IMG/VR virus record: IMGVR_UViG_2667527592_000002 | Direction: 5' to 3' (one strand) | DNA: 64,000 nucleotides | Source of the DNA: a virus | Lineage: Duplodnaviria; Heunggongvirae; Uroviricota; Caudoviricetes | Part shown: positions 1,737 through 50,568 of the stretch, in pieces | Position numbering within the stretch: position 1 is the first letter of the stretch | Layout of the letters: every line of letters begins with the position of its first letter | Notes under the pieces: generated by a model | What the model was told of the DNA's origin: nothing | Seen by the model: only the letters and a program-made list of their open reading frames with translations | Databases searched by the model: none | Translations under genes and position numbers: made by a program

Positions 1737-2346
1737 GAATAATTATGTTCTTCTTAATTATGCTGAATTAAACGAAAAGGGGCTGGCAAAACTCGTCAAA
1801 GAAATCAGCAAAGGTGGTTACAAGATAGCGAGGGTGATCCCTGCAAGTAATGGCAGGAAGAAAGATGGGATCATGACGCGCACGTTTACCCTTATTGGTA
1901 TTGATGAACAGACAATGGAAGTTCAGGTTAACGATACCGGCGATATATCTGGGATCAAACTGAATGGTAAAACAGTACCGTTCAAGCCAGTAAAAACAAT
2001 GTCGGCTTTGGGGCAATCTCTTGCGGCTTTATTTAATCGCGGAGCAACTTCTTTCCAGAAGTCATTAGCTCGAAAACTTGCTCGTGCAGCAAAAAATATT
2101 GATGACGGAAATAAGAAGCGGCAGGGAGTTAAATCTAACGCTCAGAAATTAGCTGAAGCGAAAGAATCACGTGATGCACTCCGTGAAGATATCGCTAATG
2201 CTAACGACAAACTGTCTAAACTCCAGAGCAAGTCAGACAAAGTAATGCAAGATACGGGTAACGTTAAAGCTGCCTTGTCTCAGGAAGTAGCTAAGACACG
2301 TGCTCTTAAAGAAGAAATCGCGCGCCTGGAGGATGAGCATGATTAA
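1726..2346 (+). CDS. hypothetical coiled-coil protein (Hdf position)
   Basis: ORF track 1711..2346; ATG at 1726 preceded by AAGGAG; C-terminal heptad-rich region. Confidence 0.3.
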   Translation: MSNKNNYVLLNYAELNEKGLAKLVKEISKGGYKIARVIPASNGRKKDGIMTRTFTLIGIDEQTMEVQVNDTGDISGIKLNGKTVPFKPVKTMSALGQSLAALFNRGATSFQKSLARKLARAAKNIDDGNKKRQGVKSNAQKLAEAKESRDALREDIANANDKLSKLQSKSDKVMQDTGNVKAALSQEVAKTRALKEEIARLEDEHD

Positions 2347-4714: not shown

Positions 4715-6112
4715 TTGGAGTGTATTTTGAACAAATCAGTTACTTCTGCGCTTTCCGAGGCCGCAGATATTAACAGCGTCATTGCTCTGGTTTCTTCATT
4801 AGAGAGGAAAGAAACACGCCTGGGGCGAAGTAGCTACGTAGTCACCAGCAAAGGTGCAGAGGTAAAGACGGCTTTTAAGGTCGTTGATGCCAGCAGTCTG
4901 ATCATTTCGAACAACCTTGACGGTACGATTAACCCGGCCTTCCCGGAAGAACTCCAACCACGAGATCGTACCCGGCTATCCAGCAAACTCCAGGTTAACC
5001 GTATTGCCTCCAATTTACGCCCGGCACAATTAACGGATTCCGGTATGAGCAGCCACGGAGCGCCTATAGTTGGTCCGGACAACGTTGTTGAATCCGGCAA
5101 CGGAAGGAGTATGGGTATCTGGCGTGCCTATGAGCAAGGACAGGCGGATGAGTATCGCCAGTACCTGATCGACCATGCGAAAGAGTTTGGTCTGAATCCT
5201 GACGAAATTTCGCAAATGTCTATGCCCGTACTGGTGCGAGAAAGACTCACAGATGTAGACCGCGCTCAATTTGCCCGCGATTCAAACATTAGTGATCTGC
5301 AAGAGATGGCAGCAAGTGAAAAAGCGTATGCGGATGCGCAATTTCTCACTGAGAGTGTCATGGCGCTATTTAATCCTTCAGATGATGGAAATCTGCTGGC
5401 GCGGTCCAATGATGCGTTTATTCGTGCGTTTTTGCGCGAAATTGGCGATACAGCGACGGCAGGCTTGCTTACTGCCGATGGGCGTCCCACGAAACAGCTT
5501 ATCGATCGCATCCAGAATGCAATTTTTGCCAAAGCGTACAAGGATGAAAGGCTTGTTAGGCTGGTGTCGGAAGAGCCAGATCCGGAAATGCGTAATATCC
5601 TGACCGCATTAAATACGGCAGCCAGCGATTTTGCGCAAATGCAGTCGCTGTCTGGCGACGCTCACCATGACGCAGTAACAGGCTTAGTGGACGGTATAGA
5701 GCAGGTTAATGGCCTGGATACACAGGCGATAGCAGCACTCCAAGAAGCAATTAATCTTGTACGTGAAGCCAAAGACAACGGTCAGGCCGTTGAAGAAGTG
5801 ATCGCCCAAAGGGGGTTATTCGGCGACAGTACACCGGAAGCTGAGGCATTGGCGTTATTCATCGTAGCAAATAATCGCAGTGCGAAGCGTATGGGGGCAG
5901 CATTCAAAAAAATGGCGCAAAAAATCAACGACGAGCTGACTCATAAACAACAGGCATTGGGCGATATGTTCGGCGGTGGCGATGTTGATCTGCGTCGTAT
6001 TTTGTCTGCTGTATCTGATGAAATTGAGGGTGAATTTGGCGAAGGGAAAGGTCTGAACTTTGCTATGTTTGAAAATTCTACAGATCTAAATAATTGCCGT
6101 ACGGAAAACTAA
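4715..6112 (+). CDS. ParB/Srx-like N-terminal domain protein (DdrB position)
   Basis: motifs ...EELQPRDR... and ...VESGNGRSMGIWRA... resemble ParB box I/II (QPR and GxxRxxA); alternative start likely. Confidence 0.4.
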   Translation: MECILNKSVTSALSEAADINSVIALVSSLERKETRLGRSSYVVTSKGAEVKTAFKVVDASSLIISNNLDGTINPAFPEELQPRDRTRLSSKLQVNRIASNLRPAQLTDSGMSSHGAPIVGPDNVVESGNGRSMGIWRAYEQGQADEYRQYLIDHAKEFGLNPDEISQMSMPVLVRERLTDVDRAQFARDSNISDLQEMAASEKAYADAQFLTESVMALFNPSDDGNLLARSNDAFIRAFLREIGDTATAGLLTADGRPTKQLIDRIQNAIFAKAYKDERLVRLVSEEPDPEMRNILTALNTAASDFAQMQSLSGDAHHDAVTGLVDGIEQVNGLDTQAIAALQEAINLVREAKDNGQAVEEVIAQRGLFGDSTPEAEALALFIVANNRSAKRMGAAFKKMAQKINDELTHKQQALGDMFGGGDVDLRRILSAVSDEIEGEFGEGKGLNFAMFENSTDLNNCRTEN

Positions 6113-10098: not shown

Positions 10099-10447
10099 TT
10101 AATTTGCTGTTTCTAAATCGGAATGTATGATCTGCATCATCGACTGAAGTCATCCATTGCTGAAATTTTTAGTTGATCTTCCATGTTTTCAGGCTTATAT
10201 TCATGCCGTCGTAGCAAATTCTGCGACCGGGTTTGACAGCCTGAATACTTACGCGGACAACCGCACATTTCCGATATTGCGGTATTTTTGTGTCCGTAAA
10301 ACCACGTTACGCCCGAATTATGGTGGGGCGTGATGGGGAGGCTTCGGCCTGCTGGTTTCGTAAGTGCCAGTCTGTCAACCCTGTCACGTCCTGCCACCTG
10401 TTTGACAGCGGGTCGCAGGTTGTTTATCAACTTACGAGGCCGTAACT

Positions 10448-12244: not shown

Positions 12245-15200
12245 TTGGACAAACTACTTCATTCAATCAGTGAAGCCTCCAGCTTAGGCGAACTGATTGA
12301 AATTGTTAGTCGGTTGCATAAATTACGTGCTGTTGCGACCTTTGGCGTCAGGAAAGCCGATGGCGTCAGTATTCAGAAAACACGCCGGGCAGCAAACAAC
12401 GCCGCAGTAAATCTTCTTAATTCCCTTCCGCCCGGCTTCGATGGGGCGAAATTAACTGACGAACAACGTCAGATTCTTGCCGGGTATACCGGTGAAGGTG
12501 GCCTGACAGATGGTGAGGGCAGCCAATACGAATACTACACGCCACAGTTTATGGCTGAAGGTATATGGGATCTGTTTGCTGACTACGGTATTGATGGTGG
12601 GCACGTACTGGAACCATCAGCGGGCACAGGTATTTTCCAGGAGACAAAACGGCAGGGCATGATAATGACCAGCGCCGAACTGTCTCCGATTTCCGGTCGA
12701 ATAAACCAGCTTTTGCACCCGGAAGACGATGTGAATATCGGGGCGTTTGAGGCGCTGGCGGCGAAAGACGCAATGTATGACCACGCTGTTGGTAACGTAC
12801 CGTTTGGTGAAGGGCGTTCCGGCGTTGCCGGGCTTGATCCGGCATATGCAAACGAGAAGAACGTTGGCAATTACTTTGTGTTGCGCACGATCGACAAGGT
12901 TAAGCCTGGTGGACTAATTGTATTGGTGGTGCCGAATGGCATGACCGATGGTACGAAATACAAAAAATTGCGCGATAAAGTCAGCCGTAAAGCGGAATTT
13001 TTGGGCGCACATCGTATGCCTTCTGGTACGTTCAGCGAATCCGGTACAGATACCGTGGTGGACGTATGGGTATTGCGTAAACACCCGGAAACCTTCCTGG
13101 AGATGATCCCCGACACGGATGATGCAACGCTCAAATCGGCAAACGTCCTTTGGGATACCTTCCTCAAAGGGAAATGGTTTACAACCGAAGGGAAGCGATT
13201 TGTTTACGGCGACATGGAACGCACCAGCTTCCGCAATACCCTGGTGGTGAAAAAGGATGGTCGTGTATCCAATGAGTCGATGAAAACCGCGCTATCTCGT
13301 CGCTTTGATAGTCGCATCAATTGGGATTTGCTCGGCGTAACTACTCAGGCATGGCAGGGCGCGAAAGTGGGCGATAAACGCCTTGTAGGCGGTATCTGGC
13401 ATGAGTTTGATGGCCTGAAATGGGTTAAGGACACGACAACCAAATCCTCCGCGCTTGATGTAAGTCGATATGGTGTTTCGACGTTTGGCGATCTGCAGAT
13501 CGCGTTCCAGTCAACAAACGGGATTCTGGCTTTGTCATGGGACCAGATATCGGCGATCGCGTCCGACTATCCATCGGTTGTCAGTGATGAAGTGGCAGCA
13601 ATGATTCGCTTTGCTGGCAAGCAGCGAGAAAAAGACAGGGAGCGCGTTATGCGCGGTGCGCTGATAGGTCAGTTGATCAACAAGGCACTTGATTTGCGTA
13701 ACCTGGGTGTGAACGTTGATGACAAACTGGCAGATGCATCCCGCCTGGCGGCAGCAGAAGTTGCGAAGTATGGACCACCGCACGCGATTAAGCTGAATGG
13801 GCTTGCTGAAGCTGGCGCTAAAAACTGGATGACGTTCACTGGCAATGTGAAACAGGATGGTTCCACTTCTGACCTTCTGGCAGGGCGACTTGATGTAACG
13901 GATGGTGCTGCCGGTATTGACTTTACCCGTCCTGAACAAGTGATAGCACATCTTTTCAGTGATGTAGCCCTTAATCCTATAACGCTGGGAGACTTTCGTG
14001 AGGCGTTTGCTGGTGAACTGCCAGAGGACGACGACGCGGCCCTTGAATTCCTGGCGAAATTTGATGATATCGCTATTGATGGGTATGGCTGCCTGCTGCC
14101 GATGGACCGCGCCACCAGCGGCGATATTGCAACCAAAACAGCATTGCTGGTGGGCTGGCGTGATGCGTCAATAGGTGAGCAGAAAGCGAACTTTGAGCGT
14201 CAGTTGGCGAAAATCGAAGAGAAACGCATTTTCACGCCACTAAATAAAGTCACCGTTAATCTGAACGCCCGCTGGCTGGATCGCCGCTTGATAAAAGAGT
14301 TCCTGGCAGAGCAGGGCTATGACGAGTTTAAGTACACTGAACCTGATCTGAAGGTCGTCGATGGCATTCTGGTATCTCCGGACGATTACGAAGGTAAGGA
14401 CGGGGTATTTACCGGCTATCAGCTACGAACCGTAAACGGCAAAAACGGGAATGAGTTCAAGAAGGCCAACAATAAAGACGGCTTCCTGAACCAGTTAGAA
14501 AACTACCTGAACGGCGTCAAACCGCGCGGGCAGAACGCTAACGAGTACCTGGATAAGATTGCTCAACTTGAAGTTAGCTTTAACGACTGGTTACGCACTC
14601 ACCCGCAGGCTGATCAGATAGCCCGTGACTATAACGACGCATTCAATGGTTTCATTCCGTTCACGCATTCTGACGCACCGCTTGGCCTGGAAGGGCTTAG
14701 TGGAAAGCGCATTCCTCTTACTTATCAGAATGAAGAAGTTCGGCGCTTGTCAGAAGATGGGCGCGGCATCATGGGATTTGGTACCGGGCTGGGTAAAACC
14801 ACGACCGCGCTTGCGCTTGAGGCGTATAACTTCGAAACAGGTCGCACTAAACGCACGTGTATTGTTGTTCCGAAGGCGGTTTATCAGAACTGGTATCACG
14901 AGGCACAGAGTTTCTACAGTGCTGATGCCTTCGCCAATATGATGTTTATCGGTTTGGATGAAGTTCGTGATGACAGCGGAAATATTCTGACCGCGCCGGT
15001 GCTTGATGAAAATGGCGAACCACGCCTCGACAGTAACGGGCAGCCTCTTACCAGAAATGTTGTGAAAGAGTCCGCCAGCGCCGTTATCGTTCAGCGCATG
15101 AACATGATCCCGTCGTCAAATTGGCGAACGGTCATCATGACAAAAGAACAATTCGCGTCTATCCCGCTACGAGAAAAAACCATCGAGGAGAACTCACAGC

Positions 15201-18200
15201 AAGCTGTCTTTAATGCTGTGGAAATGGGGCGTCTTGACCTGGCGTCCGGTAAACACCGTGATGCGCAGAAGAAGAACAAGATTAAGGATCAGGCCGCGAA
15301 TACCGGTACAACGAAGAAGCAGAATATCCCGTACTTTGAGGATATGAACTTCGATAGCGTGATTGCCGACGAGGGGCATAACTACCGCAACTCCTTTAAT
15401 GCCGGGCGTGAAGCGGGACAACTGGCATATTTGCCTAATCCGGCAGTATCCAAGATGGCCCGCGACATGGCTGTAAAAGCTGCGTACATGATGAAACGCA
15501 ACAACGGGCGTGGTGTAGTCATGCTGACGGCAACTCCGCTGGTGAACAGTCCGATTGATGCCTTCAACATGCTGTCTACTGTCATTCCGCAGGAAGAGTG
15601 GATGCGCATGGGCATCATTACGCCTGATGATTTCGTTCGTGTGTTTGGCAAAACAGCCACAGTTCAGGTCCAGAAAATTTCCGGGGAAGTGGAAGAGAAG
15701 CAGGGGCTGGTGGGCTTCCAGAACCTTGACGGCCTGCGTGGTATTTTCCATCGTTGGACCACTCTGAAGACTGCTGCAGATGTCGGAGCGACGGTTAAAA
15801 TTCCCGACATCATTGAGAACACCTTGCAGATCCCGATGACAGGGGAGCAGGAGACTGCTTATGAAGAGCTTCGTAAGCGTGCTCAGGAGTTAAGTCGCAA
15901 TGATGAGCTGACAGTCGATGAAAACGGGCATATCACTAACGACAAACCAGATGATTTCATCTTCTCCATCATCCGTGACATGGACAAGGTTGCTATAGAC
16001 CCGGATCTGTATGCCAGTGCGATTACATTCCAGTTCCCCGTTGAGCTTGCAGACCAGGTAAAAGCTATTGCTGATGCCTTGCCAAAAGTAGCTGGCGGTA
16101 AAGTGGCAGATGATGTTGATGAGGCCGAGGAAGACGGCGCTGGCGGGCTGGTCAGTACGCGTACCAGCAAGGTAGTGAAGACCGCTTTTAGTGAACATCC
16201 GACGCATGTTGAAATACGTGCCAGCATTGAACTGGAAGCTGAAATACTGAAGGCCATTGCGGCTGCCGGTATTGATATGCAGCAGGTATCGCACCCCATC
16301 CCGCCGAAGTATGCCGCGCTGATCGAAAATCTTCGTGAAGGTCTGAAGAACGGTAAGCAGATCGTCTTTATTGATGAAAAAGCCCAGCACCAGAAGCTGC
16401 GCCGTATTATCGCCAGTGCACTGCAAATGCCGGAGCAGGAGATTGGCATTATCAATGCGACGACAGTTAGCCAGGCTGGCGGCATCAAGCTGAAGAAGGT
16501 GAATAAGCCGACCGAACCTACTCCAAACAAAAACGGTGAATACAAAGAAGGGGCATGGGAAACCTACTACAGCAAACTTGCACAATATGAGGATTATCTC
16601 TCAGCTAAAAATGATGCTGGCCTTGAGGGCATGGAAGGTATTGCCGCCGACTATAACGAAGGTCGCACGCGCATCATAATCTGTAACAAGAAGGCTGAAG
16701 TAGGTATTAACCTGCACATCGGGACAACCGATATCCATCACCTGACACTACCCTGGACACCAGCCAGTATCGACCAACGAAATGGGCGCGGTGCGCGCGT
16801 AGGTTCACCGCAAGAAAAGGTCAATGTTCACTACTATTGTGGCAAAGGCACATTCGATGACTTCCGTCTGGATACGCTGAAACGTAAGAAAGACTGGATC
16901 AAGATGGTGATGACATCCGACATGTCAGAGATCGCCAATGGTGATGCAGATGATGCTGATGAACGCGCCATTATGCTGGCGGCAAACCCGGAAGAACGCC
17001 GCGCAATCATGGCTCGCCAGGCGCAAGAGCGTGAAGAACGTCTGAAACTGAAAGCACAGCGCGAGGCCAACAATGCTCTCGATATCTACCTGAAAGCGGC
17101 AAACGCCGCCGGAAAAGATATCGGCATGATGGAGACAGAACTGAAAAGCGCGATGGAACAGATAGAGTATTACCAGCGCAATCTTGACGACCTGATAAAA
17201 GCGGGTACGAACAGGAATGGGCAAAAATACGCGCTTGAGCAGTTGAGTAGCTACAGAAAACGTGCGCGGGTGCTGCGGTTTGCGATCACCATGGCAAAAG
17301 ACGCGGATACCATAATGAAACGCTCTCGTGGTGATGTGGAGCGCGCTATTAAGTCTGGTGTGCTGGATATCAGTATCGATGTTATTCAGAACCCACAGGA
17401 ATATATGCGCACTGACAAGAATATCCTGTTGCATAAAGGTAGTTATTACCGTGCAGTCATTGATGATCGCGAAACAACAGCGATTGTCCGGGTGGAAAAA
17501 ATTGACGGTGAAAAAGCACAATACATCTGCCGTATCGCCTGGCTGGATAGAGCAAGTCGTTACGCTCGATCACCGGGGTCAATCGTTACATTGCCGTTTG
17601 ACTCTGTGATTGAAGCGGTAACTTTTGAAGAGGGGGTTGCTGAATCACGCGCAACGGCTGCGCGTGGTGTTCAGTGCCACCAGCTATCAACAATACTTAC
17701 TCGCGATCAGTTCTATGATGCTATTCGCAATGGGGTAATGAATGTTATTGCTGGTAAACCTGGTAATGCATGGGGCGGTGGATCAGCTATTAAATACTGG
17801 GCCTATCGCACAGATGATGGGCAGATCGCGCTGTCATCGACCTATGATGGCGTGATAGGCCAACAAATCGGGCGAGCATCGGATATAGCACCTGAACGAT
17901 GGATATATCCTGATGGCAACGACGAGGCGCTGAAGCGTGAAGTGGCAAAAATACAAGCCAGTGATAACCCGCTGAATATCGTGGACGGAGAGGGATTCCT
18001 CCAGGCATTGTATGGGTATGATTACATCCAGGGAATGCAGGCATGGGGCGCACAAGCGACGATGGATGATGTTGCCCAGGAGTTCGAAAACTGGATGGCT
18101 GGGCGTGGTCTGTCAGGTCGTTCGCTTAATAAAGTCACTTCTGAAGATATTCTTAGCTTGTTCCGTAAACCGTCCGGAGAAGGTCTGGAATCATTCTGGA

Positions 18201-19081
18201 GGACCGTGCTGGCATACCGTTTATTCCAGGGCAGGATGAAAGCCTTTAGCAATATCGATGATATTGAACGGATGTTTAATCAGGTCAAGATCGCGAAAAT
18301 TAAGGCGAAGATCGAAAAAACACGTTCTGCGCTGGTGGCCTGGCGCGATGCATTGTTTGAGCAATATAAATCACTCAGTGATGCAGATGGATGGGCGGCG
18401 CTGGAACAGTTGGCGAATAATGGGGTAGATGGAGCGAAACTCGCCATTGTCCAGGCTGATAACCCCCTGGAATCACCGGCAGCACAGTGGATTAAGGTGG
18501 GGGCTGTCATCAATGCATTTGATGAAAAACACATTAGTAAGGACGATTTTGCTGATGCTGTTTCTGTTAATCGCCTGGTAGAAATGGCTACCCGCCGCGC
18601 CCGTGAGTTGAAAGATGGCGACTATGTGAATGAGTTGCCGGATACGCTCAAATCGGCAACGTGGCAGGACTATGTATCGCTGAAAAACGGCGGGGCCACT
18701 GAATCAGAAATCGCGGAAAGGCTTGAGCAGGCTGAAAGCAAAAGAGAAGAGCAGGCGGCAGTGGCTGAAGCCAGAGCTGATGAAGCGGCAAATGATGACT
18801 ATATCATTGTGGTTAATGATAAGCCGATTCGCGCTAAGGCGCGTGTTCGCGGGCGCTGGTGGAGCGTCAGCGAGGACGTTGGCGCGGTTTATCTCATTGC
18901 CGACCAACCAGGTTCCTCGACAATAAGGAACGCCAAAGACGCGATTAAGAAGATTGGCGGGCGTTTCTGGAATTTTGAAGTGAATCCGGTCGCGGATGTG
19001 GACTTTGACCGTCCGGCGTGGATGGTATCTACGCGTTACTCGGTAGATGAACTGCGTAAAATAATCGCCGATGCGGCCTAA
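12245..19081 (+). CDS. darB: DarB-like giant antirestriction protein: N6-adenine methyltransferase + DExH/SNF2-type helicase
   Basis: 2278 aa; MTase motif I VLEPSAGTGIF and motif IV-like GNVPFG; helicase motifs GFGTGLGKTTTAL, VIADEGHNYRN, LTATPLVNS, IDQRNGRGARVG; TTG start. Confidence 0.8.
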   Translation: MDKLLHSISEASSLGELIEIVSRLHKLRAVATFGVRKADGVSIQKTRRAANNAAVNLLNSLPPGFDGAKLTDEQRQILAGYTGEGGLTDGEGSQYEYYTPQFMAEGIWDLFADYGIDGGHVLEPSAGTGIFQETKRQGMIMTSAELSPISGRINQLLHPEDDVNIGAFEALAAKDAMYDHAVGNVPFGEGRSGVAGLDPAYANEKNVGNYFVLRTIDKVKPGGLIVLVVPNGMTDGTKYKKLRDKVSRKAEFLGAHRMPSGTFSESGTDTVVDVWVLRKHPETFLEMIPDTDDATLKSANVLWDTFLKGKWFTTEGKRFVYGDMERTSFRNTLVVKKDGRVSNESMKTALSRRFDSRINWDLLGVTTQAWQGAKVGDKRLVGGIWHEFDGLKWVKDTTTKSSALDVSRYGVSTFGDLQIAFQSTNGILALSWDQISAIASDYPSVVSDEVAAMIRFAGKQREKDRERVMRGALIGQLINKALDLRNLGVNVDDKLADASRLAAAEVAKYGPPHAIKLNGLAEAGAKNWMTFTGNVKQDGSTSDLLAGRLDVTDGAAGIDFTRPEQVIAHLFSDVALNPITLGDFREAFAGELPEDDDAALEFLAKFDDIAIDGYGCLLPMDRATSGDIATKTALLVGWRDASIGEQKANFERQLAKIEEKRIFTPLNKVTVNLNARWLDRRLIKEFLAEQGYDEFKYTEPDLKVVDGILVSPDDYEGKDGVFTGYQLRTVNGKNGNEFKKANNKDGFLNQLENYLNGVKPRGQNANEYLDKIAQLEVSFNDWLRTHPQADQIARDYNDAFNGFIPFTHSDAPLGLEGLSGKRIPLTYQNEEVRRLSEDGRGIMGFGTGLGKTTTALALEAYNFETGRTKRTCIVVPKAVYQNWYHEAQSFYSADAFANMMFIGLDEVRDDSGNILTAPVLDENGEPRLDSNGQPLTRNVVKESASAVIVQRMNMIPSSNWRTVIMTKEQFASIPLREKTIEENSQQAVFNAVEMGRLDLASGKHRDAQKKNKIKDQAANTGTTKKQNIPYFEDMNFDSVIADEGHNYRNSFNAGREAGQLAYLPNPAVSKMARDMAVKAAYMMKRNNGRGVVMLTATPLVNSPIDAFNMLSTVIPQEEWMRMGIITPDDFVRVFGKTATVQVQKISGEVEEKQGLVGFQNLDGLRGIFHRWTTLKTAADVGATVKIPDIIENTLQIPMTGEQETAYEELRKRAQELSRNDELTVDENGHITNDKPDDFIFSIIRDMDKVAIDPDLYASAITFQFPVELADQVKAIADALPKVAGGKVADDVDEAEEDGAGGLVSTRTSKVVKTAFSEHPTHVEIRASIELEAEILKAIAAAGIDMQQVSHPIPPKYAALIENLREGLKNGKQIVFIDEKAQHQKLRRIIASALQMPEQEIGIINATTVSQAGGIKLKKVNKPTEPTPNKNGEYKEGAWETYYSKLAQYEDYLSAKNDAGLEGMEGIAADYNEGRTRIIICNKKAEVGINLHIGTTDIHHLTLPWTPASIDQRNGRGARVGSPQEKVNVHYYCGKGTFDDFRLDTLKRKKDWIKMVMTSDMSEIANGDADDADERAIMLAANPEERRAIMARQAQEREERLKLKAQREANNALDIYLKAANAAGKDIGMMETELKSAMEQIEYYQRNLDDLIKAGTNRNGQKYALEQLSSYRKRARVLRFAITMAKDADTIMKRSRGDVERAIKSGVLDISIDVIQNPQEYMRTDKNILLHKGSYYRAVIDDRETTAIVRVEKIDGEKAQYICRIAWLDRASRYARSPGSIVTLPFDSVIEAVTFEEGVAESRATAARGVQCHQLSTILTRDQFYDAIRNGVMNVIAGKPGNAWGGGSAIKYWAYRTDDGQIALSSTYDGVIGQQIGRASDIAPERWIYPDGNDEALKREVAKIQASDNPLNIVDGEGFLQALYGYDYIQGMQAWGAQATMDDVAQEFENWMAGRGLSGRSLNKVTSEDILSLFRKPSGEGLESFWRTVLAYRLFQGRMKAFSNIDDIERMFNQVKIAKIKAKIEKTRSALVAWRDALFEQYKSLSDADGWAALEQLANNGVDGAKLAIVQADNPLESPAAQWIKVGAVINAFDEKHISKDDFADAVSVNRLVEMATRRARELKDGDYVNELPDTLKSATWQDYVSLKNGGATESEIAERLEQAESKREEQAAVAEARADEAANDDYIIVVNDKPIRAKARVRGRWWSVSEDVGAVYLIADQPGSSTIRNAKDAIKKIGGRFWNFEVNPVADVDFDRPAWMVSTRYSVDELRKIIADAA

Positions 19082-23513: not shown

Positions 23514-23589
23514 GATGGTGTAGCTCAGCGGTTAGAGCGGTTGACTGTTAATCAACGGGTCGATGGTTCAAATCCATCCACCATCGCCA
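23514..23589 (+). tRNA. tRNA-Asn (anticodon GTT)
   Basis: 76 nt cloverleaf folded by hand; acceptor GATGGTG/CACCATC, T-loop TTCAAAT, anticodon loop CTGTTAA, encoded CCA. Confidence 0.9.
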
Positions 23590-23591
23590 AT

Positions 23592-23667
23592 GCCGGTTTA
23601 GCTCAGTTGGTAGAGCGCCTGCCTTGTAAGCAGGATGTCAGCGGTTCGAGTCCGTTAACCGGCACCA
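23592..23667 (+). tRNA. tRNA-Thr (anticodon TGT)
   Basis: 76 nt; acceptor GCCGGTT/AACCGGC, D-arm GCTCAGTTGGTAGAGC, anticodon loop CTTGTAA, CCA. Confidence 0.9.
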
Positions 23668-23677
23668 GCACAACAGG

Positions 23678-23757
23678 TAAGGGTATTTTGCGACGTCGGA
23701 GATCGCCGAGCTTGGCAGAGGGTTCGAATCCCTACGAAGTACCCTTACCGTTGTGAT
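23678..23757 (+). ncRNA. tRNA-like degenerate hairpin module (unit A)
   Basis: GGTAAGGGTA...GGTTCGAATCCC...TACCCTTACC: acceptor-like stem and T-loop-like element but no canonical cloverleaf and no CCA. Confidence 0.3.
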
Positions 23758-23889
23758 GAATGCGCAGGCTGATGCGCGAAAGACATTGCAGCTATTGCGG
23801 AAAAGAGCTGTCCGGCGGGGCAATTAAACGCCCGTGAGAGTCTGAAATAACCGCAAGCCGGAGATCAGCACCGGTCATCACAACACAAC

Positions 23890-23950
23890 AGGTAAGGGCA
23901 TTCTCCCTTATGGGGCTTGGCTTAAATGCATCGAGTGCTCTTACCGTTGT
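23890..23950 (+). ncRNA. hairpin module (unit B) sharing leader and trailer with unit A
   Basis: GGTAAGGGC...GCTCTTACC stem of about 9 bp; flanked by ggagatcagcacc leader and cgttgtgatgaa trailer. Confidence 0.25.
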
Positions 23951-24337
23951 GATGAAGTGCAGCTCTTTGAAGCAACCAGAAGATAAGCATCTGGCTTCAC
24001 AACATAAACCGCAGGAACGACCAATAAACGGTAGTCCGTATGGAGAACACCCCGTTGAGGAAGAGGCCTGGCCGGAACCGTAACCGGCACTACAACGTTG
24101 AGAACACTGGCGTAACGGGGTCATATCCCAATCTACGAATAAATGTTGCGTTGCAGCGTGACAACCAGTGTTCTCAACATTGTGGTGAATGCGTGTTGCT
24201 GGCGCGCAAGTCCGCCCTATGGCAACGAGGCGGCGTAGTAAATATCGATGCCTCAGTCATCAAGCGCACTGACCGGCCTTATGGGCTATGAAAAAAAGAG
24301 GCGCAGTCGGAGATCAGCACCGACCACCACAATCAAT

Positions 24338-24424
24338 GGAGAGTAGGGAGCATGGTGCTCAAGCGGTCTTGAAAACCGTCCCATTGCGCAAGCGATGATG
24401 GTTCGATTCCATTACTCTCCGCCA
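24338..24424 (+). tRNA. tRNA-Ser-like (anticodon TGA), long variable arm, atypical D-arm
   Basis: acceptor GGAGAGT/ACTCTCC, anticodon arm GCGGTCTTGAAAACCGT, T-loop TTCGATT, CCA; D-arm non-canonical. Confidence 0.6.
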
Positions 24425-24584
24425 TCGCAACGTTAAGAGTATTTGGCTAATTAAGCGAATGCCGGAAGCAGAACCGGATCACCAAATGCGTACAGGCGTC
24501 ATCGCCGCCCAGCCAGCCAAGTGCTCTTACCATTGCGGTGAATGCGGCTAAGCGCACGCGGAACAGTTAAAACAATCCTCCTTA

Positions 24585-24908
24585 GTGGTTAAGTCAAACA
24601 TCCCGGCGTTAATTGTTAACTGGTTAACGTCACCTGGAGGCACCAGGCACCGCAATCTAATAAAGTTTCAAGCAATGGGGTTTTTGTTGTCAGACTTCAG
24701 ATATAGATGGTTGTGGAAGGAGAGCCTGTACATAGTGCAGTTATTTCTTCCGCTATTTGTCTGCTTTGTCATGCTTCCTGAGCTGAAATACGCAATTTCA
24801 GACACTTTAAGCACTATCGTTACTTTTGTGTTTTATCTTTACTTTGATTACTTATTGAGCACTAAAATCAATGAATTATCCGAGGAAATGCAAGGTGGCT
24901 GTAAGTGA
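24585..24908 (+). CDS. small hydrophobic protein (start uncertain)
   Basis: ORF between tRNAs with two predicted TM helices. Confidence 0.25.
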   Translation: MVKSNIPALIVNWLTSPGGTRHRNLIKFQAMGFLLSDFRYRWLWKESLYIVQLFLPLFVCFVMLPELKYAISDTLSTIVTFVFYLYFDYLLSTKINELSEEMQGGCK

Positions 24909-24909
24909 T

Positions 24910-25038
24910 GGATTTTTGGGCGTTTGCCGATAAGAACCCTGGTTGGACATTTTTATTTTTGCTGGTGGTTGCATATGGGGTCGAGCAAGCGGCTAAAGCC
25001 TTACGCGGTTCTGGCAAAAAGCGTAAGCGGAATTAACA
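24910..25038 (+). CDS. small membrane protein (42 aa; below ORF-track cutoff)
   Basis: MDFWAFADKNPGWTFLFLLVVAYGVEQAAKALRGSGKKRKRN; one TM helix, basic tail. Confidence 0.25.
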
Positions 25039-25045
25039 GTAATCT

Positions 25046-25121
25046 GGCCCTTTAGCTCAGTGGTTAGAGCAGGCGACTCATAATCGCACGGTCACCGGTT
25101 CAAATCCGGTAGGGGCCACCA
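25046..25121 (+). tRNA. tRNA-Ile2-like (anticodon CAT, lysidine type) or tRNA-Met
   Basis: 76 nt; near-identical arms to E. coli ileX as recalled: GGCCCTTTAGCTCAGTGGTTAGAGCAGGCGACTCATAATCGC... Confidence 0.9.
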
Positions 25122-40866: not shown

Positions 40867-41058
40867 TCAGTCTCCTTTAGTGCGCAGGTGGTTTTTCCAG
40901 CGGTTTTGCGCCGCGCTGCGCTTATCTTTTACTCCCTCTCTGGCAATTCCAGAATATAAGTACAACACCACACGGCGATTGCTAACTCTCAACCACTGGC
41001 TGGGATAGCAACGTCTGTATACACGGGAAATAAGCATCTTTGCTTTACGGTTTTTCAT
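40867..41058 (-). CDS. small basic protein (paralogue 1)
   Basis: MKNRKAKMLISRVYRR...; 63 aa. Confidence 0.3.
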   Translation of the reverse strand: MKNRKAKMLISRVYRRCYPSQWLRVSNRRVVLYLYSGIAREGVKDKRSAAQNRWKNHLRTKGD

Positions 41059-41231
41059 CTTACTGCGTACCCTTTCTTCCGCCTGTTCTGTGACGCGCTA
41101 GGCTTACGCTTTGCGGCAAAAGCCACCTGACCAAATGGATGGAGTACCGCTATCTTATGGTTGCTGATAACCAGCTCCACCACACGCACAGGTCGCTGTA
41201 AAAAAAGTCGTTTTGCTTTACGGTTTTTCAT
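41055..41231 (-). CDS. small basic protein (paralogue 2; 58 aa, below ORF-track cutoff)
   Basis: hand translation MKNRKAKRLFLQRPVRVVELV...; same start context tgctttacggtttttcat; ATGA overlap with paralogue 1. Confidence 0.25.
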   Translation of the reverse strand: MKNRKAKRLFLQRPVRVVELVISNHKIAVLHPFGQVAFAAKRKPSASQNRRKKGYAVR

Positions 41232-41403
41232 CGTTTTGCTCTCCTGCGTTTCTTTGCTGCTCGTCGTGCCGCCGCAATACCTGTATGGCGGCGCTTTGGT
41301 GCCGGGATGATGTTGTCAGCCATCAGGACATGCGGCTTTGTAATTAGCGCAGAAGCCCAAAAACGAGTCGGATACGGTAACAAGCCGATACATGCCACAC
41401 GCA

Positions 41404-41883
41404 TTACTCACCTTCTTTGATGCGAATGCCTGCGGCGCGTGGCACATTAACTTCCACGATGCGCACTGTTGGTTTGTACATCTCAATCGCTGTCAGCCAG
41501 TCAGCGCCGGTCATACGCTTTTCTGCATCGCCATTAGTCCACTTAACCGGTACACCAATAGCCTTCATCGCAATTTCTATTTCCCCGGCAATGGCGCTTT
41601 TCCCGCAACCAGTAAAACCAGATACAACGACAAGAACTTCGCCTTTTGCTGGTTTTATTTCCCGCGCCTCCACCTCTGCAATTCGGCACATAGCATCGAT
41701 ATTTGTGTCTTCCTGGCGTTTAACTTCATCCAATAATGCCAACGCGATATCTGGCGAAAAGTGCTTCATAAAATCGTTAAGCGCATTAATTCGCTGATCG
41801 AAAGGCATTACAGGCGCTTCACCAGCAATTTTTGTTTTTTCAGCAATTTCACGAAGCTTTTGATAGTCAATTTTGTTTGTCAT
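41404..41883 (-). CDS. P-loop protein
   Basis: ...VVVSGFTGCGKSAIAGE... Walker A-like. Confidence 0.35.
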   Translation of the reverse strand: MTNKIDYQKLREIAEKTKIAGEAPVMPFDQRINALNDFMKHFSPDIALALLDEVKRQEDTNIDAMCRIAEVEAREIKPAKGEVLVVVSGFTGCGKSAIAGEIEIAMKAIGVPVKWTNGDAEKRMTGADWLTAIEMYKPTVRIVEVNVPRAAGIRIKEGE

Positions 41884-42758
41884 GCCACTACCTCTTCGAA
41901 TTTCAACTCCAATTGGTCACCCCAGATTTCACATGATTCGGAACACGAACCAGTATCAAACCGCTTGGCCTGCACCATCGCCTGATACAAATTTCTGTAG
42001 TCGCTGTCGGCATACATTCTGGCAATCCCGTCAAGCGTCAGGTGACCACGGTACATAACGTCTTTACCTGTTCTGCGATGACCATCCCTGACGTGTTTGC
42101 CTGTAACCAGTTCATTAAAAACCCGCATCAGACCTGGTTCGTCTTTACATGCAAGCCCCAGCTTTTGCGTTGACTTTTTGATGCAAAAAACACAGTTCCC
42201 GAGGTGCTCCGGGATTTGCAAATCAAAAGGTTGTTTTCGCCACCACCGGATAACATCCGACTTATCAAAATCTGACAGCTCGGCAAGATACCGGACGCCC
42301 GGTTTCGGTTTCAGCCTACGGGGTTCGTCCGCACGAATACCCAGCCATGTGATGTAATTCCCTCGCCCAAAATGGTCATCGCAATATTTCGTGAAAGGGG
42401 TGAGTTTTAGCCTGTCAGTACAGAACGCGCCGCCGATGTATGGCGTACCGTACTTTTTAACCATGTCCATAAACGGTTTAAGCACCGGCATTCGCGTCTG
42501 AATATCCTTTGGTTCCCATTCCGTATAACCATTTGGCTGCCCAAGTTCTGGATTTATATCGACCTGCAACACCGTTAGCGGTACATTCCAGAACTTCACA
42601 ACCTCACGAATAAAGCGATACGTCAGAGGATGTTCACAGCCGGTATCCATAAAAATGAAATGGACGCTAGCGCCAGCTTTTCGCTGTGCTTCCATCAGAT
42701 GAACGAGATAAGCCGATGTTCGTCCACCTGAAAAGCTGACGACTTGATGCATACTCAC
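41880..42758 (-). CDS. pap: PAPS-reductase-like / PP-loop ATP pyrophosphatase family (Pap-like)
   Basis: N-terminal VVSFSGGRTSAYL PP-loop motif; 292 aa; near phd-doc as in P1. Confidence 0.75.
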   Translation of the reverse strand: MSMHQVVSFSGGRTSAYLVHLMEAQRKAGASVHFIFMDTGCEHPLTYRFIREVVKFWNVPLTVLQVDINPELGQPNGYTEWEPKDIQTRMPVLKPFMDMVKKYGTPYIGGAFCTDRLKLTPFTKYCDDHFGRGNYITWLGIRADEPRRLKPKPGVRYLAELSDFDKSDVIRWWRKQPFDLQIPEHLGNCVFCIKKSTQKLGLACKDEPGLMRVFNELVTGKHVRDGHRRTGKDVMYRGHLTLDGIARMYADSDYRNLYQAMVQAKRFDTGSCSESCEIWGDQLELKFEEVVA

Positions 42759-42761
42759 GGT

Positions 42762-43454
42762 TTATTCCTGAACGCGCTTAAACTCGATTACCCATACCCA
42801 CGGGTTAGATAGCCAGTTATCCTGCCCGTAAATACTGCGCCAGATATCACCAAAACCAACGCGATAAACAGCTTCCGGCGGCGTAATTTTGTACATCGCC
42901 GGAGATGCGCCTTCTGCTTTAGCATCTGCCTCGCTCATATCACGCAGCCGTTCCACACGCACGTCGGTAATTTCCAGCAAAATGCGCGATGCCCAGCGCG
43001 GCATGTGAATTGATGGACGCCACCCGCCATCAAATTTTTCATTCACAGTGTGAGGTTTCCAGTCGGCATCATCGGGTATCGACCACAAGCCGTAATCACC
43101 CGGCTTTTGCTCACAACTGGCCCGATAAATCCTTGCTGCGTTCTTCTCATCGCCACGACAAAGGTTGTCGTTCCAGTCCACACTGCAACCATCCTCATTG
43201 CCTAATATCGCCCACGCCTCACGGACCCATATGCGATCACCAACGTTACCGAACGGGCATAAACCATGTTCAGGTGCATCCATAACGTGGGTATAGACAC
43301 CATTGCGTTTCTTGGTCGGTTTACGGATAACCAGGCAGTTATCGGCCCTGACATTTTTTACAGGTCGGCGAGTCTGCGTCTTCCTTCCTTCGAGGATGGC
43401 CCTGACCATCTCATCGTTAAAAATCATCCCGCGTTCTTTCATTTTTTGATCCAC
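42762..43454 (-). CDS. hypothetical protein (ASCH-like N-terminus?)
   Basis: ...MIFNDEMVRAILEGRKTQTRR... Confidence 0.35.
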   Translation of the reverse strand: MDQKMKERGMIFNDEMVRAILEGRKTQTRRPVKNVRADNCLVIRKPTKKRNGVYTHVMDAPEHGLCPFGNVGDRIWVREAWAILGNEDGCSVDWNDNLCRGDEKNAARIYRASCEQKPGDYGLWSIPDDADWKPHTVNEKFDGGWRPSIHMPRWASRILLEITDVRVERLRDMSEADAKAEGASPAMYKITPPEAVYRVGFGDIWRSIYGQDNWLSNPWVWVIEFKRVQE

Positions 43455-43458
43455 CTCA

Positions 43459-44454
43459 TCAGTTATTGAACGTGATCACTCCGCGCTCGATGGCGAAGTC
43501 GAAAAGCTGGTTAGCTGCTACGTAAAGGCGTATGCCATGTGCTTTTTCCCATGCCCGGACATCGTTTTCTGCGCTTCTGGCGCAGTCATCGCAAAGAGGA
43601 ACAGCCCAGCGGTCGTGTTCGTTTAACGAGCGGGCGCGGTACATGAATGGGTGATTAACCTTGCCGCCGCAGCCTACACACGGGCGAGACACCACAAACC
43701 GGAGATAAGCCGGGCTTTTTCCGAGTAAGGTTTTTGGACGGCGCATATATAGGAGGCCAGAATCTTCATCGACGGACAGATTGACGATCTGCTCTGCGGA
43801 AATATCCACCAGCTCGCGGGTACTATGCTCCCAGGTAATATCCGACTCTTTCAGAGTGCCGGTAGGGATTTCAGTTTTTGGCTGACAAAATGCAATGCGA
43901 CCAGCTTCATCAGGCAGTTCGTCTTTAAGATTCCGGCGAATGGCCCAAAAGGTGAGTTCAACCATGCTCAGATCGCGATCTGGCGGAAGTTTTAACTCGC
44001 TGGCAGCCCAGTTCATAATCCAGTTGGCGCGATTCAGTGACAGTTGGTCTTCCAGCTTGCCGTATCCCTTCATCATGTATTCCGCATCATGCTTCCAGCA
44101 CAGGCGAACGGCAGAACCGTTATAGAAATGGGTGGTTAACTGGTGGCTGCAATCGCGCTTATCATGCGCCTGGCAATCGTGAATGTTGGTGCTAACCCAG
44201 TGAACGAGAGAATCCTCACCACCTAACGCGTTAAATACGCGCTCACTTTGAAAAAAGGGTGCCAGTGACTGGTTGGTAACCAGTGAATAATTCAGGTCAA
44301 CGACACCATCAGGGGTGTTTTCAGCCTGTTCACGCGGCAATGGGGATATAAGAAAACGACGTCCTGCGCCGATGTAATTGCTGGTGGGCTTATCTACAGG
44401 AAAGACAGCCACACCAGTTTCATTTACGACATATGGGGTGATTATTGCACTCAT
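43459..44454 (-). CDS. hypothetical protein with C-terminal Cys-rich motif
   Basis: ...RPCVGCGGKVNHPFMY...AVPLCDDCARS... Confidence 0.35.
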   Translation of the reverse strand: MSAIITPYVVNETGVAVFPVDKPTSNYIGAGRRFLISPLPREQAENTPDGVVDLNYSLVTNQSLAPFFQSERVFNALGGEDSLVHWVSTNIHDCQAHDKRDCSHQLTTHFYNGSAVRLCWKHDAEYMMKGYGKLEDQLSLNRANWIMNWAASELKLPPDRDLSMVELTFWAIRRNLKDELPDEAGRIAFCQPKTEIPTGTLKESDITWEHSTRELVDISAEQIVNLSVDEDSGLLYMRRPKTLLGKSPAYLRFVVSRPCVGCGGKVNHPFMYRARSLNEHDRWAVPLCDDCARSAENDVRAWEKAHGIRLYVAANQLFDFAIERGVITFNN

Positions 44455-44551: not shown

Positions 44552-45232
44552 TCAGACTTTAAGCTGCCCTCCCTTCACATGCATTAGCGTCAGATTTCCG
44601 CAAAAAACCGCGCCCGTGTCTATGTAGTGCTGATTCCAGTATGCTTTTGGTCTTCGTACCGGTGTGTGCCCAAAGATAAAGCGATCTGCGCCTGTGATTT
44701 CTCCACCAATGCCATCTATCGAATCACCGACGCGACTGCGCGACCAGACAACATCAAAAAGCGACACATCCTTACCGAACTGGTACTCTCCACCTGGATA
44801 GTCGGCATGGGCTATAACGATAGTTTCATGCCCGGTGTTCAACTCAATGATATAGGGCAGACGTCTTACCAGCTCCACCAGCGCCCTGGCTAATATTTCC
44901 CGATCAGCGTCCAGCATGAAGAACCATTGACCACCATTCATTAGCCAGTTATTCACGTTGCCTGCGGGACTTAACGCATCGATCATTAATCGCTCGTGGT
45001 TTCCCATAACCGACCGAAACCAGGGCATCTGCAATAGCTCCAGGCATTCAACATTTTCGGTGCCGCGATCGATAAGGTCGCCAACCGATATCAGTAAATC
45101 CTGCGCCGGGTCAAAATCCACACGATGGAGTTCGGACATCAGTCTGGTGTAGCAACCATGCAGATCACCAACAACCCATATGTTTCTGTAGCCAGAACCA
45201 TCAATACGGCTATATAAATTCACTTCATGCAT
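44552..45232 (-). CDS. ppp: Ser/Thr protein phosphatase (lambda PPase family; Ppp-like)
   Basis: ...[13 protein letters not shown]..., ...[11 protein letters not shown]..., ...GNHE...; ORF track start 45274, likely true start at internal Met. Confidence 0.85.
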
Positions 45233-45240
45233 AGCCTGGA

Positions 45241-45552
45241 TCATGCGGCAACCTTCTCCCGCAGCCAGATACAAACTGGACCATCTTCAGTGTCATGGAT
45301 AGAGCCAACAAACCAGCCTTCACCCTCTGGTCGCTCCGGTTCCCAGGCGGCAATATCGGGTCCATCTGCGTCCAGATCAAAATCATCTTCATCCATACTG
45401 CGAATAGTCCACTGAAGATTATTTTCCTTCATCCAGGCGTCAAATTCCTCAGTGGAAATATATTCACGACCTGCGCAAAACTTCTCATACTCCGGATGTG
45501 TCCAGCAGCCATATTCATCACGTTCTACCGGCATTTTTTTAATGATGCTCAC
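45241..45552 (-). CDS. hypothetical protein
   Basis: 103 aa ORF. Confidence 0.3.
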
Positions 45553-50255: not shown

Positions 50256-50353
50256 AAATACTGACTGTTGCGCCCTGGCATTATCGTGGGGTATATTTCT
50301 ACGGCACCTTAGAAAAACGGGTGCCGGGATTGGAACCCCGGATAATGCAAAAG

Positions 50354-50376
50354 GCGACACAGACGCCGAAAGCGTC
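50354..50376 (+). terminator. rho-independent terminator
   Basis: gacgccgaaagcgtc + ttttttt. Confidence 0.6.
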
Positions 50377-50568
50377 TTTTTTTGTGTCATGCCATCGCAC
50401 AGCCATACGTAGCGTTTAGCTCAGAGATCAATGGTAGTGCTGGCTGGGCTGCCGAAAGGCAGGCCGGTTCCCTTTTGCGCCGGTAGTTCCAACCCAGTCA
50501 GTGCTACCGCCATTGAGATTGGAACCTCACGCGGTAGCTCCTTAAATTAGCAAAAGGAGGCTGCCAAT

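Follow-up and report, generated by a model that had tools for sequence, protein, structure and literature searches.

Two adjacent minus-strand genes (positions 41,404 to 42,758) in a 64,000-nucleotide (nt) stretch of a Caudoviricetes virus, IMG/VR record IMGVR_UViG_2667527592_000002 (hereafter the window), are probably two independent accessory early genes that abut by chance in a packed, mosaic minus-strand operon of a P1/D6-like phage-plasmid, and not a dedicated two-gene system. The first is identified by its sequence as an orthologue of lambda NinC, and the second as a gene for a modular protein of the Ead/Ea22 family. An initial annotation had described them as a 3'-phosphoadenosine 5'-phosphosulfate (PAPS) reductase-like gene, 'Pap', translationally coupled to a Walker-A (P-loop) protein. 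Re-reading of the sequence confirmed both open reading frames (ORFs), their coordinates, the SFSGGRTS and Walker-A motifs, and the overlap between the genes. Both genes are already in public records, where identical sequences are annotated. The features of the two genes are as follows.

41880..42758, minus strand: ninC gene, ORF of 292 amino acids (aa) from a GTG at 42758
42752, minus strand: ATG, the probable true start of ninC (290 aa), as in the RefSeq-style annotation of the identical gene in plasmid NZ_CP067430
42714..42737, minus strand: PP-loop motif SFSGGRTS, NinC residues 8-15, read from the sequence
42183..42194, minus strand: invariant CxxC of NinC, C189-V-F-C192 within GNCVFCIKK, from the homologue alignment; also in Vibrio phage 44E38.1 p0018
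41931..41945, minus strand: C-terminal cysteine pair of NinC, C272-x3-C276 (GSCSESCE), from the homologue alignment
41404..41883, minus strand: gene of the Ead/Ea22-family modular protein, 159 aa, from the ORF, PF13935, phrog_250 and the names given by sources
41689..41874, minus strand: Ead/Ea22-like helical N-terminal region, residues 4-65, from PF13935
41431..41655, minus strand: mobile C-terminal module of ~75 aa, residues 77-151, from conservation across the module family
41596..41619, minus strand: Walker-A-type motif GFTGCGKS, residues 89-96, read from the sequence
41880..41883, minus strand: ATGA stop/start overlap of ninC and the Ea22-like gene, read from the sequence
41891..41894, minus strand: GAGG, Shine-Dalgarno-like, inside the last ninC codons, for the Ea22-like gene (GAAGAGGTAGTGGCATGAC)

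The two genes are not a conserved pair

The two genes do not appear to form a functional unit, as their adjacency is not conserved. In IMG/VR, NinC lies at most 4 kb away in 3 of 80 loci that encode the C-terminal Walker-A module of the second protein, and the module was found in 5 of 80 NinC loci. The direct downstream neighbour of NinC, recorded for 86 loci, is a 67-aa protein in 41, a 115-aa protein in 22 and an Ea22-like protein in 18, followed by lambda NinD and others; four of the 18 Ea22-like proteins carry the Walker-A module, which corresponds to 4 of the 86 NinC loci. Upstream of module-bearing genes, a 208-aa protein was found in 30 loci and NinC in two. The same picture emerged from sequenced plasmids, of which 64 carry the NinC gene, 104 the module-coding segment and 11 the joint arrangement, and from phage D6, where a module-bearing Ea22-like gene is present and NinC is absent. 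At the level of gene linkage, the second gene is essentially unrelated to the one that had been called Pap, an outcome that the initial annotation had itself named as speaking against its reading.

The ATGA overlap itself is real, and a GAGG sits 7 nt 5' of the ATG of the Ea22-like gene (minus-strand sequence GAAGAGGTAGTGGCATGAC). It is, however, not specific to this pair: 83 of 86 NinC loci (L083-L162, L164, L170) have an ATGA overlap at this point, whatever gene comes next, and overlaps of 1 or 4 nt are found at 6 of the 10 junctions between minus-strand ORFs from 45274 to 39389. Because overlaps are so common both in this operon and after NinC, we regard the overlap as a general trait of the operon and of the ninC 3' end. 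At its 3' boundary, ninC seems to have a recurrent joint for recombination, one that supplies a Shine-Dalgarno sequence and a start codon of its own, and the ATGA overlap would reflect operon-wide gene chaining together with this portable junction. The proposed translational coupling stands as far as the overlap and its GAGG are concerned, but the locus counts (4/86, about 3/80 and 11 plasmids versus 64 and 104) do not make it a conserved module. Since the pairing appears to be incidental, the candidate two-gene system as such is of no importance.

The first gene is an orthologue of lambda NinC and not P1 pap

The protein encoded by the first gene is 80% identical in amino acid sequence (residues 3-287) to the product of the lambda gene between ninB and ninF (NinC) and 95% identical to NinC of Shiga toxin (Stx) phages. 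At the nucleotide level, the similarity to Stx phages is 93% and limited to the ORF (window 41877-42749); because it starts and stops at the ORF edges, it fits a single gene transferred as one mosaic block. Two PHROG families, phrog_424 and phrog_33262, match NinC over residues 2-291 with an expectation value (E) of ~1e-92. By these matches, the first gene is an orthologue of lambda NinC, and NinC is classified by sequence as a PP-loop protein of the PAPS-reductase/DndC/SspD superfamily. The lambda protein (nin-region ORF-290) resembles the window protein over its full length (290-292 aa), with the same motifs and the same ATGA junction, whereas the setting differs: in lambda the gene belongs to the lambdoid nin region, between ninB and ninD, and here it lies between a PmgT-like and an Ea22-like gene in a P1/D6-like phage-plasmid. 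Whether a protein belongs to the NinC family does not depend on this position.

The label 'Pap', taken to refer to P1 pap, was a confusion of names. P1 pap (P1_gp094; 83787..84293, 168 aa) is annotated as 'putative P1 acid phosphatase', and it is also given as an acid phosphatase in the literature (PMC10695390). A tblastn search for a P1 Pap homologue in the window gave a best E of 1.0, and a tblastn search of the complete P1 strain MH422554 gave no match to a NinC-like protein. We rejected the identification of the first gene as P1 pap, Pap being unlike anything in the window and NinC being absent from MH422554 in these searches. All that the two share is a name, 'pap' being close to 'PAPS', and broadly comparable surroundings (ppp ... 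pap, pmgT); the products differ, a 168-aa putative acid phosphatase in P1 versus the PP-loop protein NinC here. The label probably arose because the P1 order runs pap and then pmgT, and a PmgT-like gene adjoins NinC in the window. This corrects an annotation trap, in that P1 'pap' stands for acid phosphatase and not for PAPS reductase.

Conserved residues of NinC point to a putative adenylating enzyme

We then compared NinC with profiles of known PP-loop families. PF01507 (PAPS_reduct), a profile of 175 positions, matches residues 6-72 with 37.7 bits (cut-off 22.5, E=2.8e-9), and PADLOC returned SspD (E=1.8e-13, profile positions 2-121 of 277), DndC (5e-4) and BrxP (~1e-4). Together with the PHROG matches, these results bear out the membership in the PP-loop/PAPS-reductase superfamily that had been assigned at first. 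The NCBIfam models of full-length CysH and of PAPS or adenosine 5'-phosphosulfate (APS) reductases (TIGR02057, TIGR00434 and TIGR02055) scored 13-22 bits on NinC against cut-offs of 154-254, the DndC model 17.8 bits against 290.4, and the TilS model far under its cut-off. The closest solved structures are PAPS and APS reductases (6vpu, 2goy, 1sur), which align with the first ~100 residues only.

An alignment of 39 homologues, down to 51% identity, showed that S8, S10, G11, G12, R13, S15, DTG-EH, C113, C126, C189, C192 and C276 are invariant, and that C272 is conserved in at least 90% of them. Window NinC has all the family motifs that are invariant in these homologues, namely SxSGGRxS, DTGxEH, GNCxFCxKK and the C-terminal cysteine. 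The six cysteines C113, C126, C189, C192, C272 and C276 are a candidate metal or iron-sulfur (Fe-S) site. An intact SGGxxS loop is the mark of ATP pyrophosphatases, which adenylate their substrate, and true PAPS reductases (CysH) have a degenerate loop. Because the loop is intact in NinC, we read the protein as a putative adenylating enzyme with a cysteine/metal centre. The catalytic C-terminal cysteine of CysH lies in an ECGLH-type motif; the C-terminus of NinC reads GSCSESCEIW, in which the sequence and the alignment place the conserved cysteines outside any ECGLH motif. In the mechanism that we propose, NinC would adenylate a substrate with ATP and transfer sulfur or another group, via its cysteine/metal centre, to a nucleic acid, most likely DNA.

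NinC shares with DndC and SspD the N-terminal PP-loop domain and conserved cysteines that may form a metal or Fe-S centre. It differs from them in that the N-terminal half alone aligns and in that no DndA/D/E or SspA/B/C was found near it, either in the annotation of the identical plasmid or in a Pfam scan of the large window ORFs; specifically, no dnd or ssp gene was detected by Pfam scans of the window ORFs of at least 280 aa or among the annotated neighbours in that plasmid. With CysH-type PAPS/APS reductases, NinC shares the PF01507 match and the nearest solved structures, whereas the match stays within the first ~100 residues and the C-terminal half and cysteine pattern are different.

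A homologue of NinC belongs to an anti-Dnd cassette

In several homologues, a phage Dam methylase (PF05869) is joined to the NinC module, and NinC-type domains are recurrently fused or adjacent to Dam methylases. One of these fusions is p0018 of Vibrio phage 44E38.1 (P0363), which has 479 aa, a NinC module and, at the C-terminus, the PF05869 Dam domain. Its identity to window NinC is 55% over 283 aa, and it retains SFSGGRTS, GNCVFCIKK and GSCSESCE. When p0018 and p0019 were moved into a related sensitive phage, infection of a Dnd-carrying host resulted, and the cassette was described as a system that counters Dnd and is at least partly tied to the PAPS domain (Piel et al., preprint, bioRxiv 10.1101/2021.05.05.442762). 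Piel et al. 2022 is cited for an anti-Dnd role in PMC13551039. The companion p0019 is a DUF6475 protein without a P-loop, and no homologue of it was found in the window. While p0018 shares all its NinC motifs with the window protein, it differs in carrying the Dam domain and in having been tested together with p0019; window NinC stands alone.

Lambda ninC is non-essential (PMC10695390), and a literature search on the function of NinC returned essentiality data and annotations only. NinC-family genes are otherwise single, with no common neighbour, in lambda, Chi, a Drexlerviridae phage and several Vibrio phages. From this distribution and the Vibrio cassette, we infer that the most likely role of NinC is that of a conditional anti-defence enzyme that is directed at DNA and works with no dedicated phage partner. 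It would act against phosphorothioate-based immunity of the Dnd/Ssp type and would be dispensable in hosts that lack such systems. The initial annotation had tied phage enzymes of this superfamily to DNA modification or anti-defence, a view that gains support from the 55%-identical, Dam-fused homologue in the anti-Dnd cassette and from the recurrent fusion or adjacency to Dam methylases. NinC is among the last lambda genes without a function, and the link at 55% identity yields a testable anti-Dnd/Ssp hypothesis.

The second gene encodes an Ea22-family modular protein

The 159-aa product of the second gene matches PF13935 (Ead_Ea22) over residues 4-65 with 28.0 bits (cut-off 27) and phrog_250 with E=2.9e-33; PF13935 is also present in its close homologues, for which the sources use the name Ea22-like. 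On these sequence grounds, the second gene encodes an Ead/Ea22-family modular protein. Its DNA is mosaic, the C-terminal coding part matching Ea22-like genes of phiV10-type phages and D6, and the N-terminal coding part matching EaA/Ea22 genes of P22-like phages. In the AlphaFold2 (AF2) model, helices span residues 7-17, 28-41 and 44-74, with a predicted local distance difference test (pLDDT) score of 61-80, which is low confidence. The full-length model, built with a 61-sequence alignment, had a mean pLDDT of 67 and a predicted template modelling score (pTM) of 0.37 and was too poor to be used in a fold search.

In Ea22 proteins, an N-terminal segment is followed by a coiled coil and then by a C-terminal domain (CTD) that varies; the full protein is a tetramer and the CTD a dimer (PMC10834534). 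Interchange of the CTD in Ea22-like proteins was seen here both across loci and in the mosaic DNA. The window protein shares with lambda Ea22/Ead the PF13935 N-terminal region and the modular plan of a helical N-terminal part with an interchangeable CTD, whereas its CTD is unrelated to the solved lambda Ea22 CTD and its gene lies in a phage-plasmid operon instead of the exo-xis interval. A sequence search of the PDB with the C-terminal module did not match the lambda Ea22 CTD even at E<=10. We propose that the N-terminal region would be helical and oligomerising and that the interchangeable module would be displayed on the Ea22 scaffold in several copies, where it may bind a phosphate-bearing ligand or a host protein, in a role unrelated to NinC.

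The C-terminal module is a conserved, P-loop-like unit of about 75 residues

To define the module, an exhaustive HMMER search was run with residues 66-159, and the hits were clustered at 50% identity, which gave 447 clusters that carry the module. The best 149 of the 447 clusters (P0121-P0269), 58-98% identical to the query, served as representatives. The proteins are 110-623 aa long, and the module forms the C-terminus in 132 of the 149 and the N-terminus in 12; the 12 with an N-terminal module are 166-465 aa long and rich in AARQPV-type linker repeats. The remainder of the module-bearing protein, scanned with Pfam in 77 cases, matched Ead_Ea22 in 15, Lar restriction-alleviation in two and DUF4406 in one, the others having no Pfam match, and no Pfam family covered the module itself in these scans.

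The module is laid out as a strand, the Walker-A motif, a helix, a strand, [ND]GD-x-EK, a helix and VRIVE-x-N-x-P, with the near-invariant pattern GEVLVxVSG-x-TG-x-GKSA-x-AGEIEI ... W-x-[ND]GD-x-EK ... VRIVE-x-N-x-P. Residues G89, T91, G92, K95 and S96 are invariant, and the Walker A (GxxxxGK[ST]) follows a hydrophobic strand (EVLVVVSGFTGCGKS); the form GxTGxGKS is departed from in two of the 149 representatives. The Walker-A motif taken alone is no evidence, since the bare pattern G....GK[ST] has five matches, a chance level, in the six-frame translation of the window.

Nearly all the sub-threshold profile matches of the module are P-loop proteins: APS kinase, UvrA, ArsA, gluconate and shikimate kinases, and designed minimal P-loop proteins. 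For APS kinase, PF01583 scored 14.7 bits against 21.1 (E=0.031), the NCBIfam models scored 12-17 bits against 139-715, with four models at E=0.004-0.07, and one module homologue reached 9e-4, also below threshold. In a profile search of the PDB, the P-loop matches were insignificant (E>=0.019). When the module was modelled alone with AF2, the best model had a pLDDT of 84.8 and the other four 50-71, DSSP assigned no strands, and Foldseek gave no match to the model in the PDB or BFVD. Kinase and SIMIBI P-loop NTPases (APS kinase CysC, dethiobiotin synthetase, GPN-loop GTPase) are at least 150-200 aa long, compared to ~75 aa here, and the module differs from these, and from the designed minimal P-loop proteins, in having no lid or substrate-binding region, in scoring below thresholds and in matching nothing in Foldseek. 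By its sequence, the module is a conserved P-loop-like mini-module that is too short to be a complete P-loop NTPase, the smallest such domains being about twice as large. The description of the second protein as a Walker-A protein holds for the motif, which is near-invariant in its family; the profile searches, all sub-threshold, do not make the protein a kinase or ATPase partner, and it is better described as an Ea22-family modular protein. As the module is widespread, strongly conserved, without a Pfam family and shuffled among phage early proteins, including Lar and Ea22 types, it is a reasonable target for structural work.

Alternative explanations

Several observations weigh against two independent genes with NinC in an anti-defence role. 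The SspD, DndC and CysH models cover the N-terminal half or third of NinC only and score far below full-length cut-offs. The Dnd result was obtained with a two-gene cassette and a NinC-Dam fusion, in which the NinC module was not isolated, and this Vibrio cassette, as opposed to the present gene or lambda NinC, is the sole experimental link; in the window, no Dam domain is fused to NinC or beside it, and no dnd or ssp gene is among the large ORFs. As to linkage, the sampled loci are mostly >93% identical to the query, so that distant lineages are thinly sampled, and one locus, L052 (IMGVR_UViG_2724679059_000002, about 2605-3650), has another PAPS-reductase-family ORF upstream of a module gene. 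This ORF encodes 335 aa with SMSGGKDS, is 26% identical to NinC and ends 46 nt upstream of the module-bearing gene. APS kinase, finally, is among the best sub-threshold HMM (hidden Markov model) matches of the module. We provisionally put the weak L052 and APS-kinase hints down to coincidence: such accessory regions often contain PAPS-reductase-like genes, and scores are alike across all P-loop families.

These hints, and the ATGA overlap with a Shine-Dalgarno sequence inside ninC, are what a functional pair would explain, in which the P-loop protein acts as ATPase or kinase for the PP-loop enzyme in a pathway of DNA modification or anti-defence, as in DndC-DndD, SspD-SspC or APS kinase-PAPS reductase; phosphorothioation systems do join a PAPS-reductase-like enzyme to an ATPase (PMC12707154). 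We nevertheless consider such a pair highly improbable, given that the adjacency is rare, that unrelated genes follow NinC with the same overlap, that the module is combined with many N-terminal regions unrelated to each other and, in D6, is present in the absence of NinC, that its ~75 aa fall far short of the size of DndD, SspC or APS kinase and its scores below every family threshold, and that the Vibrio anti-Dnd cassette has no P-loop partner. Still less credible is a genuine PAPS/APS reductase, i.e., an auxiliary metabolic gene that raises sulfate assimilation of the host during infection. PF01507 exceeds its gathering threshold, the best solved structures are PAPS/APS reductases, and the PHROG label is PAPS reductase in the category moron, auxiliary metabolic gene and host takeover; on the other side, the matches are confined to residues ~3-97, the full-length models score far below their cut-offs, an SGGxxS PP-loop and SCSESCE stand in place of the degenerate loop and ECGLH of the reductases, and the fusion to DNA adenine methylases indicates DNA. 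NinC might instead modify RNA, by tRNA thiolation or a lysidine-type reaction as in TtcA and TilS, and tune translation without a role in DNA or defence. PP-loop and CxxC motifs are also a hallmark of Fe-S-dependent tRNA thiolases, TilS matches weakly (E=0.003-0.04; structure 1ni5 at E=0.41), and the replicon has its own tRNA genes. We judge this unlikely, as the SspD and PAPS-reductase domain matches are stronger, NinC is repeatedly fused or adjacent to DNA methylases, and the one link made by experiment concerns Dnd, which is a DNA-based defence.

For the second protein, it is quite possible, though not the view we favour, that the Walker-A module binds no nucleotide and is a small protein-binding or decoy module whose motif is conserved for structural reasons. 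Its length of ~75 aa, the failure to reach any P-loop family threshold, the AF2 result (no DSSP strands, one of five models confident) and the empty Foldseek searches in the PDB and BFVD would fit this, and other Ea22 CTDs have been proposed as ligands for host proteins (PMC10834534). Against it, GxTGxGKS is kept in all but two of 149 representatives with a hydrophobic, strand-like segment before it and a helix after it, the conserved [ND]GD, together with a hydrophobic run that ends in E, is reminiscent of Walker-B elements, and the sub-threshold matches, designed minimal P-loop proteins included, are nearly all P-loop. A bolder proposal, which we hold to be very doubtful, is that the module is a minimal P-loop domain that occurs naturally and stands by itself, and that may descend from the N-terminal half of an APS-kinase/SIMIBI-type fold. 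It would become functional only when assembled on the Ea22 scaffold into a dimer or tetramer, and its ligand would be a nucleotide or sulfonucleotide; behind a PAPS-reductase-family gene, as in the window and in L052, its role might be to feed or sense the chemistry of that enzyme. If this were true, the designed primordial P-loop proteins would have a counterpart in nature, and the module would be a new type of phage effector.

The operon and the replicon

Two genes flank the pair directly.

42762..43454, minus strand: PmgT-like gene upstream of ninC, 230 aa, from phrog_874 and similarity to P1
41228..41404, minus strand: small downstream ORF, 58 aa, with a 1-nt TAATG overlap with the Ea22-like gene

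The PmgT-like ORF stops 3 nt short of the ninC GTG. Its product matches phrog_874 (E=4.6e-90), and the gene is 80% identical in nucleotide sequence to the gene at the pmgT position of P1 strain MH422554; an ASCH match of the protein stays sub-threshold. Further upstream in the same operon, on the minus strand, are genes for a DUF968/HNH protein (PdcB-like, 43459-44454) and a lambda-type Ser/Thr phosphatase (Ppp/NinI-like, 44552-45274), because of which we regard the operon as a mix of P1-type and lambdoid nin-region-type genes. A scan of 38.5-49.5 kb gave no minus-strand sigma-70-like promoter, and the promoter of the operon is therefore not located; the P1 C1-operator consensus (ATTGCTCTAATAAATTT) had zero matches in the whole window with up to three mismatches allowed. 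Just 3' of the Ea22-like gene, three chained small basic ORFs (63, 58 and 58 aa) occupy 40867-41404 on the minus strand. Two of them start with MKNRKAK, and direct repeats 173 nt apart suggest a local duplication.

The 8-kb neighbourhood is 97-99% identical to ~92-kb, mostly non-mobilizable plasmids of E. coli and Salmonella, in one of which the flanking genes include phd/doc, an S24 peptidase (HumD-like) and Ref. Nucleotide similarity between the window and the complete P1 genome is patchy (67-96%). The window ORFs encode DarA, a DdrB-ParB protein, a 2278-aa SNF2 protein, a Cre-like integrase, RdgC and a D12 Dam methylase; the replicon is a P1/D6-like phage-plasmid and not P1 itself. On the plus strand lies a P1-like Dar anti-restriction set, with DarA at 2300-4264, the DdrB-ParB protein at 4715-6112 and the 2278-aa SNF2-domain protein at the DarB position (12245-19081). 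Four tRNA genes (Asn-GTT, Thr-TGT, Ser-TGA and Met-CAT) lie at 23514-25121, also on the plus strand. Two C4 antisense RNA loci were found on the plus strand (10195-10401 and 50304-50514), of which one has c4-a1b1 target sites and the other follows an isrK-like RNA, and the replicon may carry two immI-type antirepressor control regions.

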